The translations under genes and the position numbers were made by a program. Under the pieces are notes generated by a model. It worked only from the letters and a program-made list of their open reading frames with translations. It searched no databases and was not told the DNA's origin. From assembly GCA_026025075.1 (NCBI GenBank), contig JAPEUI010000035.1, forward strand, positions 120,005-140,004: 20,000 bases of DNA. The letters run 5' to 3'. This DNA comes from Vezdaea acicularis (Eukaryota). Each line of letters opens with the position of its first letter. Position 1 is the first letter of the stretch. Shown one piece after another: positions 15,901-20,000 of the stretch.

Positions 15901-17298
15901 TGCTTGACACCAAACTACCCCGTCCGGTTTAGCCACCGCTCCATTGAGAAAGGCGCCTCGCTTCGCTCGGTGCCGCTTTGTCAACACCACCGGTTGTGAT
16001 ATCGTTCAAACCTCCATCGCTCTTTTTAACATAAACACTCGTCGTTCCCTCCCCCTTCTGTCCCAACACGACTGCGTTGCAATTTCACTATGACTGCCTG
16101 TTCATGCACTGCGCTCTCCGCCCTGTCTCAGCTCCCCTCCTGCTGTCTACGTCAGCTCAACGGCGCTGGCGATTGAGCAATAGCTCGCCGATTGAGCTTT
16201 TCCGCCGTCTGGCCTCGAACCCTCGGTTCCCCCCCCCTCTGAACCGTCTTGTCATGCGATGAGCTGACGTCGCAAATGTAGCGCTAACGTGTCCTCACAG
16301 CTTCAATTGGACCGTCTCGTCCGGCGCAATGTTGCCGCAAGGCAGCTTTCAGGAGCCGTCTTGCCCTGGGACGCTTGCTTACCACTGATCAAGGCATTGT
16401 TGCACTCACAACTCCTCTCGATCTGATGCGTCATCTAACAAGGCCGTGCAACGGACCGGGATCGGTGAATCAGCAATGACAAACGAGCATCGAACATCGA
16501 CTATCAAGAATCGAGAAATCGAGAAATCGAGACATGACGATTAAATGGAAAGAATTGATGATTTGGCTGCTGATGATCGAGACGTGAGGAGGATGTGTGG
16601 TAATCTGCCGGATGAGGGGAACTTGAGAAACAGGAGCAAGAAGCTGACGTCTTGACTGAACTTGGCCGCAGCAAGTCCCTAGCGCAGAGAGCAATGTTGA
16701 TAATGCGTCTTGTCATCCAGCTCTGATACTAAACAGATGGAGCATCTGCTGCTCTTTCTCAATCTTCGACAGTCAATATCCCAGCCGCCTTGTTATGGCT
16801 TTCCTGTCTGCCTTATTCTATTGCCCCAGCACGACAAGAATGTACCAAGCAGCATGATGATGGGCTTGGGCACCAGCGCCACCGTGAATTACTTCTATCT
16901 TGAGAGCGTGGAAAGCTGCCTTGGTCAAATATTGAGCTTACGTGGCTTTCTCTGACATAGCAAATCAAAACCTGATGATAGCCATTGGAACTGCAGTAGA
17001 CTGACACGCAGGTGATAGCAATCGGTGTTTTTATCAAGAAAAACGCAGCTCTTCTTTTTATACAATCCCTACAATGCTGGAAGCGCTTTGAGATTGCGAT
17101 ACACGGAGGCATGACGGCTGAGCTTCCTGAATCGTATGGCCTCTCTGCATGAAATCACGTCATGGCTTTTGCAGTGCTCAGCTGAAATCTCAGAGAAATA
17201 TAAAAGCTCGCTCCTCCCTCTCTGGATGAGCTGCGTTCTACATCATATCCTATCATTCTCGACCATCAAATATTTTCACACAACAAAGCACCCTTTAC

Positions 17299-17700
17299 TG
17301 TAAGGATAGGCCAGTGCTTCGTCAGGGAGCGAGGGTCTGTAGGCATGTGAGCTAACTTCCAAGGACTTAAGAACTTGCAGACAAAGACTAGGTGCAGTGA
17401 TAGTAGCTGGGGCGAGGCAAGATGAGGCAAGACAAGATAGAACGAAGGTCAGACAAATCAAAGCGAGGATGCCTTCCTACTAGTTATTCAGATGAATAGA
17501 TGAGTTGATTGCTGAAGAGCTATCCTAAGGGAAGCGGCAGCTCTAATAGCTGCGCTTGTCTGTATCAGGTGATCTAAAGACCACCTGACCTTATGCTAGG
17601 TGCTAGGGGGCTGGGCAAAGCAGAAGCAAAAGCTAGCCCTCCTACCCCTTACTCATCCCAAAGGGCTTGATAGAAGCTAAGGGCTAATATAGTTATTATA
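17299..17700. mobile_element. Solo LTR, family A copy 1 (402 bp)
   Basis: Starts TGTAAGGA and ends gttattaTA (transition-mutated form of gtcattgCA in copy 2). Aligns end to end with 17751-18173. Flanks TTTAC and TTAGT do not form a target-site duplication. Confidence 0.85.
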
Positions 17701-17701
17701 T

Positions 17702-18278
17702 TAGTCGCCCTTGCAAGTTTTAATTGGACAACACTGGATTAGAAATTTTATGTAAGGACAGGCCAGTGCTTTGTCAGGGAGCGAGGGTCTGTAGGCGTGT
17801 GAGCTAACTCCCAAGGACTCAAGAACTTGCAGACGAAGACTAGGTGCAGTGATAGTAACTGGGGCGAGGTAAGACGAGGCAAGGCAAGATAGGAGAAGGG
17901 TCAGACGAAGCAAAGCGAGGATGTCTTCCTACTAGTTATTCAGATGAATAGATGAGTTGATTGCTGAAAAGCTATCTTAAGGGAAGCGGCAGCTCTAATA
18001 GCTACGCTCGTCTATGTCAGATGATCTAAGAACCACCTGGCCTTATGCTAGATGCTAGGGAGCTAGGCGAAGCAGAAGCAAAGCTGAAGCAAAGCTGCAG
18101 CAAAGCTAGCCTCCTTACCCCTTATTCATCCCAAAAGACTTGATAGAAGCTAGGGGCTAATACAGTCATTGCATTTTATCAATTGACACGACGAGATTAA
18201 ATCAAAATATAACCAGAAATACGATTATCAACGCGCAAAATGCGAAGATCCAGAACTTATTCGTGCTTGGTTTCAGCG
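17702..18278 (+). pseudogene. Fot1/pogo-family (Tc1-mariner superfamily) transposase relic interrupted by a solo LTR
   Basis: Joining 17702-17750 to 18179-18278 (removing the LTR and one TTTTA) gives *SPLQVLIGQHWIRNFIN*HDEIKSKYNQKYDYQRAKCEDPELIRAWFQR. This matches the Fot1-type segment GxxWxxNFxxRH...KYDYQRAKCEDP..I..WF after the CENP-B HTH. Stops at 17702 (TAG) and 18184 (TGA, where CGA/Arg is expected). Confidence 0.88.
17751..18173. mobile_element. Solo LTR, family A copy 2 (423 bp), with a 5-bp target-site duplication
   Basis: TG...CA termini (TGTAAGGA...CATTGCA) flanked by TTTTA at 17746-17750 and at 18174-18178. Confidence 0.92.
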
Positions 18279-18674
18279 TGTCAGGGCACGGGGTGTCCAG
18301 ATACTGCAAGGACAAGGCGTCCTGGTACGGGTTTATGATGAAAGAGTTGCATTGATTCTATCTAAGGGGATATGCTATATATACGGGCCATCACGTGCCC
18401 GGTCACGACTATCTGGTCAGGACAGCGCGGTAAGCGCTGTCCGTTGCAGGGCAGTCGCATGCCTCATAGCGCTGCTCCTATGGGCAGGCGCTATAAGGAG
18501 GCTGCGTCGGTTAGTATATATTGTCCTTGCTCCCTGCCCCTATAGTGTATTGCTACTCCGTGCCCCTATCCCGCTGTCCCACAACACCATTATACATTTC
18601 TACCACGTGGTAGAGGACGAAGCTACGTTGTTAGTGTTCTATATATCTTATCAACCTTTGAGCATAAGCTAACA
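18279..18674. mobile_element. Probable solo LTR, family B (396 bp)
   Basis: TGTCAG...CTAACA near-inverted termini, TATA-like runs and internal hairpins. It begins where the transposase relic breaks off. No 5-bp TSD (CAGCG versus CGACC). Confidence 0.65.
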
Positions 18675-19463
18675 CGACCAATAGTGCTCTCGAGAATACT
18701 CATGTGCATTGGGGTCTGATCGACAAGGTTCCTTGGGGAAGGCACCTTACAAAGTCAACGCTTCAGGCTCAGTCTTAGATAAAAGCTATTAAGCGCCTGA
18801 TTCCTCCCTTATCCAATAACTCAACATTCGGTGCCGGTGAATGCTCAAAGAGGAGGTTTTGTATTGTTGCGCGCCTGCAAGGTGTTGAGGACGTTGGGCT
18901 ACAATCTACGCATAAGCATAATGGGGTTGGTAGGCGTCATCTGTCAGTATTGGAATGAAGACGACTGAGTGCCGCACTTCTGGGCCTCGCTCTTGTCTAT
19001 CGTTCCAACTAGTGGAGCTAGTGGAACCGCTAGTTTAAAAATTGAACCAAAAGATCCTACCGTGATTGCCATGTCGCACTTCTTTTACGGTGACAGTTGT
19101 ATTCCGTGGTGGCTAAGCTTTCTATTTCCCTGCGAGTTATTACCGCTACTCCTCGAAACGTGCAGGAGCACGATTGTCTAGACGTTGTTGGTCTATAACA
19201 ATTCCTTCAACCTTGCCAACATGAGAGGCTGAATAAATAATCCTTCACCCTTTTACTGACGCGATTGAGAACTTGGTCTGCCCTTAACAACCTATGATGC
19301 AAAGAGTCTCACCAACCATGTGTAAGCTCCCCGTTATTAAAACATGCGTTATAGTTGCGAAGCCGCTGAGCTCGCGGTTACGGAGGCTCGCCTCTATAGG
19401 CGAGCCTGACTAAGCGGTACGTACATAGTCCCCCCCCTAACGTTCTTGCCCCCGAGAACCCCA

Positions 19464-19539
19464 GCTCAGTTATAACTCAGTTATAACTCACTTATAGCTT
19501 AGTTTCACCTCACTTTCAGCTCACTTTTGCCTCATTTCA
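19464..19539. repeat. About 7 copies of a degenerate 11-bp tandem repeat (NCTCASTTWYA)
   Basis: gctcagttata actcagttata actcacttata gcttagtttca cctcactttca gctcacttttg cctcatttca. Confidence 0.85.
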
Positions 19540-19544
19540 CTATC

Positions 19545-20000
19545 ATGGATGCCCAAAGCGTCCCCAGCTCGTCCAAAAGCAACTCGAGCGATTCCACGCA
19601 GCCTGAGCCTCCTATCCAGCCCGGTCCTATGCCAACTCCTTTCGGCCTTGCTACGGCCCAAGTCCCTGTTATCTCGGGCTTCAAGGCGACCGAAAATCAG
19701 CGTCGCCTGTCTGTGAAGCCCGTTCTGCGCCTCCTGATCACCTACGATCGCAAGGGGGAGCTGCTTTTGACTCGAAAAGTCAATATTGAGGCCACCATGA
19801 TCTACATGACCGGCCAGAGGGCAGAAGATGCCTGCGAGTACTGCTCCCAGGCACTCGGATGGCTCGCCGGGTGCGTTTTTGACCCGGCGGTGCTTCAGGG
19901 AGGCTGTGCCAGCTGCGCTCAGCAAGGGGCAACCGTCCGGTGCACTCTACGCACCGGCAGGCTGCTCGCGGCCTCCGCCCAGGCCCCAGCACTCCCCCAG
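19545..20000 (+). CDS. DUF3716-like six-cysteine (putative Zn-binding) protein, 3'-truncated by the window
   Basis: ATG at 19545 and 152 open codons to the window end: MDAQSVPSSS...RKVNIEATMIYMTGQRAEDACEYCSQALGWLAGCVFDPAVLQGGCASCAQQGATVRCTLR. The pattern N.EA.....G......CxxC-x9-C-x10-CxxC-x8-C fits fungal DUF3716 as I recall it. Missing from the ORF track because there is no stop codon in the window. Confidence 0.75.
   Translation, partial: MDAQSVPSSSKSNSSDSTQPEPPIQPGPMPTPFGLATAQVPVISGFKATENQRRLSVKPVLRLLITYDRKGELLLTRKVNIEATMIYMTGQRAEDACEYCSQALGWLAGCVFDPAVLQGGCASCAQQGATVRCTLRTGRLLAASAQAPALPQ

Follow-up and report, generated by a model that had tools for sequence, protein, structure and literature searches.

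An antisense DUF3716 gene under purifying selection and a dispersed, family-specific word in a young Ty3/Gypsy element of Vezdaea acicularis

In the fungal retrotransposon Boty/BcGypsy1 of Botrytis cinerea and Sclerotinia, a gene named brtn lies antisense between pol and the 3' LTR (PMC7264820, PMC4227169, bioRxiv 10.1101/2021.04.13.439636), and antisense reading frames (aORFs) are also described in the plant elements Grande (gene23), RIRE2 and Retand (PMC7264820). DUF3716 genes are carried by REP9, an IS3EU-like DNA transposon of Zymoseptoria tritici, whose two DUF3716 genes, REP9-1 and REP9-2, are expressed (PMC8232023). In the VANDAL elements of Arabidopsis, the element-encoded VANC protein has been shown to bind a short word and to bring about demethylation (PMC5735166).

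The stretch of DNA analysed here (the window; 20,000 nucleotides, G000:C245:120005-140004) belongs to a fungal genome of 18.9 Mb in 315 contigs, and its right edge is the terminus of contig C245. Proteins that match two sister copies of the element carry the label Vezdaea acicularis in their source. Its first 15 kb contain long ORFs of host-like character. Three LTR-like repeats of other families (approximately 410, 425 and 310 bp, each multi-copy in the genome) occupy 17294-18586, and the right end sits within the 3' end of a Ty3/Gypsy element, 651 nt of which fall in the window. The 3' LTR is on the minus strand, has the form TG...CA and spans 76 bp (19350..19425), with its last base pair mutated in the window copy, so that the terminal TG now reads TA. 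A reading made from the sequence only had proposed an LTR of 105 bp (19321-19425) and CCATG (19316-19320) as TSD. Both proposals were wrong: all ten LTR copies listed span 75-76 bp, equivalent to 19350-19425, positions 19321-19349 are host flank, and CCATG follows none of the three 5' LTRs in the genome. The real TSD is the 4-bp GCGT (19346..19349, plus strand), whose partner copy adjoins a 5' LTR on contig C86. Metagenome contigs from two of four runs, both belonging to one study, agree with the flank as far as position 19349 exactly and continue beyond it into unlike sequence, which supports the border independently and would fit an empty insertion site. The PPT anticipated on the minus strand is in place at 19430..19438, where positions 19430-19437 are a run of G; 4 nt separate it from the LTR, and it recurs in all five 3' ends of the family. 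Within the LTR, a hairpin with a perfect 9-bp stem and a 4-nt loop can be seen at 19385..19406, and the whole of 19350-19425 folds as a nested hairpin; for the LTR of the C168 copy the fold has a z of -2.5, with 5 of 200 shuffles equally good. An LTR of 76 bp would be among the shortest known, that of Bombyx Mag being 77 bp.

The family is represented by three contig ends that carry the 3' LTR, the PPT and the start of an antisense ORF (C245, C231 and C312), and by three that carry the 5' LTR, PBS and gag (C86, C283 and C168). The LTR pairs thus lie on separate contigs, and they were matched by TSD: the outer four bases (GCGT, AATC and CGGT) pair the three 3' ends with the three 5' ends one to one, for which the rough chance is 4e-7. 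For the window copy, a shared LTR variant provides a second link, since its LTR and that on C86 are identical at all but 1 of the 76 bases and are the only two of the six paired LTR ends to carry the variant at 19384. In this way the second LTR, the TSD and the minus-strand gag/pol that had been predicted were all recovered on paired contigs, gag-pol being read on the sister copy C168, as were the several genome copies. Copy number is low, at three full insertions. A solo LTR on C274 is flanked by ACCC on both sides, and another lone LTR of the family, with unmatched flanks, lies beside a long palindromic repeat (L020:4950-5035, G000:C291). Elsewhere, two 3' ends of the family (LTR, PPT and first ORF codons) stand head to head in a 548-bp fold-back with CTAT on both sides (L015:6005-6553, G000:C256:84004-84552); this inverted-LTR unit seems to have integrated as such, and it could be a source of hairpin RNA.

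Intact gag-pol is present at two of the three 5' ends, C168 and C283 being 98% alike. In C168, gag has 325 codons from its ATG and matches Ty3_capsid and a zinc knuckle, while pol is unbroken over 1205 codons and encodes protease, RT, RNase H and integrase in the order PR-RT-RH-IN. The two genes overlap at A AAA AAC, pol lying in the -1 frame, and we take this sequence to be a slippery site. No Chromo domain was matched in the complete 1205-aa pol; two other Gypsy families of the same genome, C and E, do match it. Relatives of the pol at 57-67% identity exist. For 13 nt, the PBS can pair with the 3' end of the host tRNA-Met(CAT) once CCA is appended; this tRNA was found at 2 of the 20 tRNA loci retrieved (36 are listed). 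Of the window copy's own interior, 386 nt survive in the assembly, on C86, and the rest is missing. Other Gypsy families of the genome have TSDs of 5 bp, and that of Ylt1 is 4 bp. A Ylt1-like non-chromovirus clade is a candidate placement, for which the text consulted in PMC3248453 and PMC5014426 was not decisive, and relatives of the element's integrase or DUF3716 protein were not found among viral contigs. As regards anatomy, there is very little doubt that the window ends in the 3' end of a young, tRNA-iMet-primed Ty3/Gypsy insertion with 76-bp LTRs, a 4-bp TSD and no chromodomain.

The antisense ORF begins 120 bp inside the LTR and runs on the plus strand for at least 152 codons (19545..20000), as predicted, with a Ser/Pro-rich start, DUF3716 and a Pro/Ala-rich continuation. 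It had been called intact; it is indeed unbroken for 152 codons, but it is cut by the contig end and the copy bears C>T and G>A changes. The predicted cysteine spacing, CxxC-x9-C-x10-CxxC-x8-C, holds, and the identity of the six-cysteine domain is confirmed by a PF12511 match (19791..19952, plus strand) of 34.4 bits against a cut-off of 22 that covers the whole profile; the first Atlas hits for the DUF3716 protein gave 0.91-0.93. The Zn2Cys6 profile suggested as a further check found nothing, Zn_clus failing to match even at E values as high as 1, and DUF3716 was the sole matching family in the Pfam scan of the antisense protein. The structure predicted for the C312 copy has a pLDDT of 89.4 and a pTM of 0.81. 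Fold searches with this model gave a best E of 6.6 in the PDB by Foldseek, a best Z of 2.1 over 48,161 chains by VIA-align and a best E of 2.8 against viral structures, an absence of matches that does not amount to a different or new fold and is still compatible with the binuclear cluster of Gal4-type proteins. Upstream of the ORF, three 11-bp tandem units containing TTATAA (19465..19497, plus strand), whose number differs among copies, are its candidate promoter. At their starts, behind pol, C168 and C283 hold an open plus-strand frame with a helical-looking tail at its end, which is probably the end of the antisense gene. Since the assembly lacks the GC-rich middle of all three insertions, we infer rather than read a single continuous ORF. 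Joining the ORF start to the C168 frame through a 6-base overlap between C312 and C168 was tried and gives the wrong frame. No homologue of greater length was found at E 0.01 among 231 candidates, which is weak evidence, and the tail helix has no match in the DUF3716 proteins compared.

The antisense DUF3716 gene is under purifying selection between element copies. Across 89 codons of the domain, dN/dS between C231 and C312 is 0.093 (dS 0.62, Fisher p 1e-11), and between the window and C312 it is 0.124; gag gives 0.13 and pol 0.083 for comparison. Of five control frames, four give values of 1.0-4.3; a value of 0.24 comes from the reverse frame, whose third positions are shared. The proposed comparison of dN/dS among copies thus came out clearly, at 0.09-0.12. 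A dN/dS of about 0.1 at a dS of 0.6 speaks against the gene being a captured host gene or a passenger without a role for the element, as do the lack of any host copy of DUF3716 in the genome and the long branch that sets the protein apart from all other sequences. Some DUF3716 genes (PSC58, NCU05718) are described as belonging to hosts in the sources consulted, and 4 of 19 long metagenome loci with DUF3716 (see below) have no transposon gene, points that favour a passenger; we nevertheless consider one very improbable. The antisense genes of C312 and the window are 82% alike and their LTRs 97-100% alike, so that two types of the gene coexist in one element family.

The copy in the window carries signs of decay. 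Between it and C231, 19 of 580 bases differ, and 18 of the 19 differences are C>T or G>A; at these 19 positions C312 has the base of C231 in 12 cases, that of the window in 3 and that of neither in 4. The C>T and G>A changes of the window copy lie in CpG (nine), CpC (seven) and CpA (two) contexts. Classical, CpA-biased RIP fits this distribution poorly, and the changes look like methyl-cytosine decay. Host cytosine methyltransferases account for four matches at three loci.

GACGGA repeats seen by eye in the spacer between the convergent genes prompted a test of over-represented words. In C168, TCCGTCA occurs 20 times in 5299 nt against 2.4 expected (corrected log10 p -7.8) and is present in 10 of 11 bins, whereas in eight host stretches no 7-mer fell below a corrected log10 p of -0.7. 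Five of the sites lie in gag, nine in pol and six in the spacer, so that 14 of 20 are coding, and they occur on both strands; the six spacer sites are clustered within 240 bp. Shuffles of synonymous codons gave 0.52 sites in gag and 1.14 in pol, and none of 2000 reached the count observed in either gene. When all words are considered, the focal element scores 9.2 against a null maximum of 3.6, a value reached by none of 150 shuffles. The element is thus marked by TCCGTCA through gag, pol and spacer, on both strands. The mark does not extend to the LTR, which has no site, nor to the 651 nt of the element within the window, the promoter region of the antisense gene included. Nine other Gypsy stretches of the genome hold 0-2 copies each. 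Within the same C168 element (L019:1-5299), ACCCCT is also over-represented, at 8 against 0.8. The distances from one TCCGTCA cluster to the next conform to multiples of 168 bp (p 0.001, in 1 of 10 word/element tests with three statistics each), a periodicity that is lost with broader words and absent in Helitrons, and that we regard as suggestive only. TCCGTCA sites are better conserved between C168 and C283 (1 of 140 against 108 of 5104 positions changed), a difference too thin to use.

A conserved antisense gene within an element peppered with one word suggests that the element may make a protein that recognises its own DNA. The same observations can be read in other ways. TCCGTCA may be a site for a host transcription factor, the DUF3716 protein acting otherwise, for example in trans on host development; words that contain CGG are typical of fungal Zn2Cys6 factors. 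Expression of REP9-1 lowers pycnidia formation, for which action in trans is proposed (PMC8232023), and the link between the word and DUF3716 is imperfect (see below). We nevertheless consider a host factor unlikely, given that the word is specific to one family in one genome (20 copies against 0-2), that it is mostly coding, on both strands and not in the LTR, and that a nearly identical word occurs in Helitrons that share only DUF3716 with the Gypsy element. A second possibility is that the protein binds its own element as a brake on copy number, perhaps together with antisense RNA converging on pol. The convergent orientation of the genes, the 6 of 20 sites in the 240-bp spacer where they meet, the low number of full insertions (three) and the discussion of antisense transcription as a regulatory route (PMC7264820) would all suit a brake; sites distributed over the entire element, however, are more in keeping with chromatin-wide action than with one operator, and the LTR has no site, and we rate a brake as rather unlikely, below the host factor.

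Self-recognition by the element's own protein can also be considered in the light of where else DUF3716 is found. The genome has four PF12511 matches, all in transposons, three in the Gypsy family and one in a Helitron. The Helitron gene is antisense to a broken RepHel, starts approximately 115 bp inside the hairpin-CTAG 3' end and has a stop, a geometry that is the same as in the Gypsy element. This broken Helitron (L027:1400-6500, G000:C267) contains the genome's only Helitron_like_N match, and CCG(C/T)AA is mildly enriched in it. A metagenome scan with an alignment of 12 proteins and one peptide pattern, which selects one DUF3716 subfamily, yielded 47 loci. A transposon gene is near 19 of the 47 and, when only the 19 loci that reach 4 kb are counted, near 15, although nearness does not equal membership. 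Ten loci face a Helitron RepHel (six of them from two assemblies), four lie behind a second type of Helitron on the same strand, and others lie by a MULE gene (one), a Plavaka gene (one), a Copia-like gene (one) and RT fragments (two); no intact Gypsy element with an antisense DUF3716 gene is among the 47. A search made without a profile returned 119 relatives, only one of which is more than 42-43% identical, and the six-cysteine pattern is present in 109 of the 120 proteins compared. In a tree of 93 domains and 88 columns, which left out 13 of the 47 metagenome loci that lack the motif, the Gypsy pair forms a long branch and is not sister to the Helitron gene of the same genome.

This distribution bears on a further alternative, in which the protein serves transposition as a cofactor, coating or tethering cDNA and replacing the missing chromodomain in the choice of insertion site. 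The pol without a Chromo match and the coverage of the whole element by sites would agree with such a role; DUF3716, however, is also found in Helitrons and in MULE-, Plavaka- and IS3EU-like elements, whose chemistries differ, and the chromodomain-bearing family C has an antisense six-cysteine gene too, which leaves a cofactor improbable.

Evidence on whether words accompany DUF3716 in general is mixed. TCCGTAA occurs 18, 12 and 14 times in the metagenome Helitrons L051, L066 and L076, against 1.2-1.4 expected, and in the RepHel of L051 and L066 none of 150 shuffles was as high. The shuffle test, which covered 3 of the 10 metagenome Helitron loci, was beaten at k=6 by four of nine DUF3716-linked coding sets (the focal element, L051, L066 and L064) and at k=7 by three of nine; of the remaining sets at k=6, two stand at 4/150, the Helitron of the same genome being borderline, and three are non-significant. 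Among Gypsy sets without DUF3716, three of seven beat all shuffles at k=6, all of them family B/B2, as compared with none of two host sets. Family B has no PF12511 match and has a word of its own, CCTGCG (0/150 shuffles), together with an antisense gene of the spacing CxxC-x11-C-x8-CxxC-x6-C. In families C and D an antisense six-cysteine gene is present and no word reaches significance; family E has neither. Two family B elements have near-identical LTRs (L110:1282-9367 and L111:1082-9134), and CCTGCG is present 42 times against 10 expected in C106. Antisense genes of the type CxxC-x11-C-x8/12-CxxC-x6-C were located at L110:8523, L111:8286, L113:7949, L114:1557 and L118:988, in three other Gypsy families; a Pfam scan of these ORFs, which did not take in the cysteine exon of family B, gave no relevant match, and the genes are possibly brtn-like. 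A chromodomain-bearing Gypsy family also has a 580-codon sense ORF behind pol without a Pfam match (L117:4120-5859).

We propose that the element encodes a DNA-binding protein that docks on the element itself, in the manner of VANC, and shields it from methylation, a mechanism to which we give, taken as a whole, about an even chance. The six cysteines would coordinate zinc and build a DNA-binding domain with sequence specificity, and the antisense gene would be transcribed separately from gag-pol, inward from the TATA-like repeats next to the 3' LTR. The protein would dock on TCCGTCA wherever its own family carries it, and docking would keep the copies of the family open against host cytosine methylation. 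The logic would be that of VANC with an unrelated protein, in a module common to unrelated classes of fungal transposons. The dispersed motif lends indirect support to a regulator role of the antisense protein. A hint towards DNA binding by DUF3716, by indirect analogy, may come from Neurospora NCU05718, which binds double-stranded TTAGGG directly through a domain that is unmapped (PMC4650311) and is called an orthologue of a DUF3716 protein (PMC10776026). Any protection must be incomplete, since the window copy has gathered C>T and G>A changes. Counting against the mechanism is the imperfect link between word and domain: family B has a word without DUF3716, and several DUF3716 elements have none. 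Further points against it are that TCCGTCA is missing from the element's 651 nt in the window, that VANC sites, unlike these, are non-coding tandem repeats, and that the 47 metagenome loci include no intact Gypsy element with the gene in antisense. More broadly, and somewhat more tentatively than for the single element, Gypsy, Helitron, MULE, Plavaka and IS3EU elements might share a swappable self-recognition cassette, in which a six-cysteine protein, its fold unmatched in solved structures, is paired with a cognate word that extends into codons and shields the element from methylation; at least two cysteine spacings would serve in this way in a single genome, with a separate word for each (TCCGT(C/A)A for DUF3716 and CCTGCG for the x11 type).

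The layout alone is ordinary, and it is the selected DUF3716 gene together with a sharp, family-specific word that makes a long-open question directly testable. The family is a clean case for a binding test: it is young, its sister copies retain intact gag-pol, its one sharp word is non-palindromic and the same genome supplies controls. If the proposal is true, DUF3716 gains a function and a named, testable target word, the antisense extra genes of fungal LTR elements gain a first mechanism, and VANC anti-silencing gains a fungal parallel. The sequence-only reading knew of no functional description of such a cargo in fungal elements; the Gypsy cargo is real, and the layout was already known in brtn and DUF3716 in REP9, as far as the text consulted for these systems goes. 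In the literature searched, which lay mostly outside subscription journals, neither a DUF3716 gene in an LTR element nor a cognate word was found to be reported. What is new here is the studding of gag and pol with TCCGTCA, paired with a selected antisense DUF3716 gene.

Compared with the systems described at the outset, the element is like Boty in that both are fungal Ty3/Gypsy elements with an extra antisense gene placed after pol and before the 3' LTR. Boty, by published description rather than by BRTN sequence, differs in having a chromodomain and a 5-bp TSD reported at a solo LTR, whereas the Vezdaea element has no chromodomain, a 4-bp TSD and a 76-bp LTR. The plant aORFs resemble the DUF3716 gene in position, orientation and conservation across copies; they encode different proteins, described as without similarity to other TE genes (PMC7264820), whereas DUF3716 is common to several transposon classes. 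With REP9 the likeness is that DUF3716 genes are carried by a transposon, but REP9 belongs to class II and has TIRs and a TSD of 6 bp, and the accessible text on it mentions no target word (PMC8232023). Gal4-type Zn2Cys6 domains likewise have six cysteines, in two CxxC pairs and two singles, and TCCGTCA contains the CGG expected of their targets. Their spacing is CxxC-x6-C, with a first loop of 6 residues, unlike the 9 residues of the antisense protein, which has no Zn_clus match. The proposed logic is closest to that of VANC, in that an accessory, element-encoded protein is accompanied by a short word that is specific to the family and enriched in the element itself. In the available account of VANC, binding and demethylation are shown and the words form non-coding tandem repeats, whereas for the Gypsy element both are proposed and the TCCGTCA sites are dispersed, 14 of 20 within gag and pol and 6 in the spacer.
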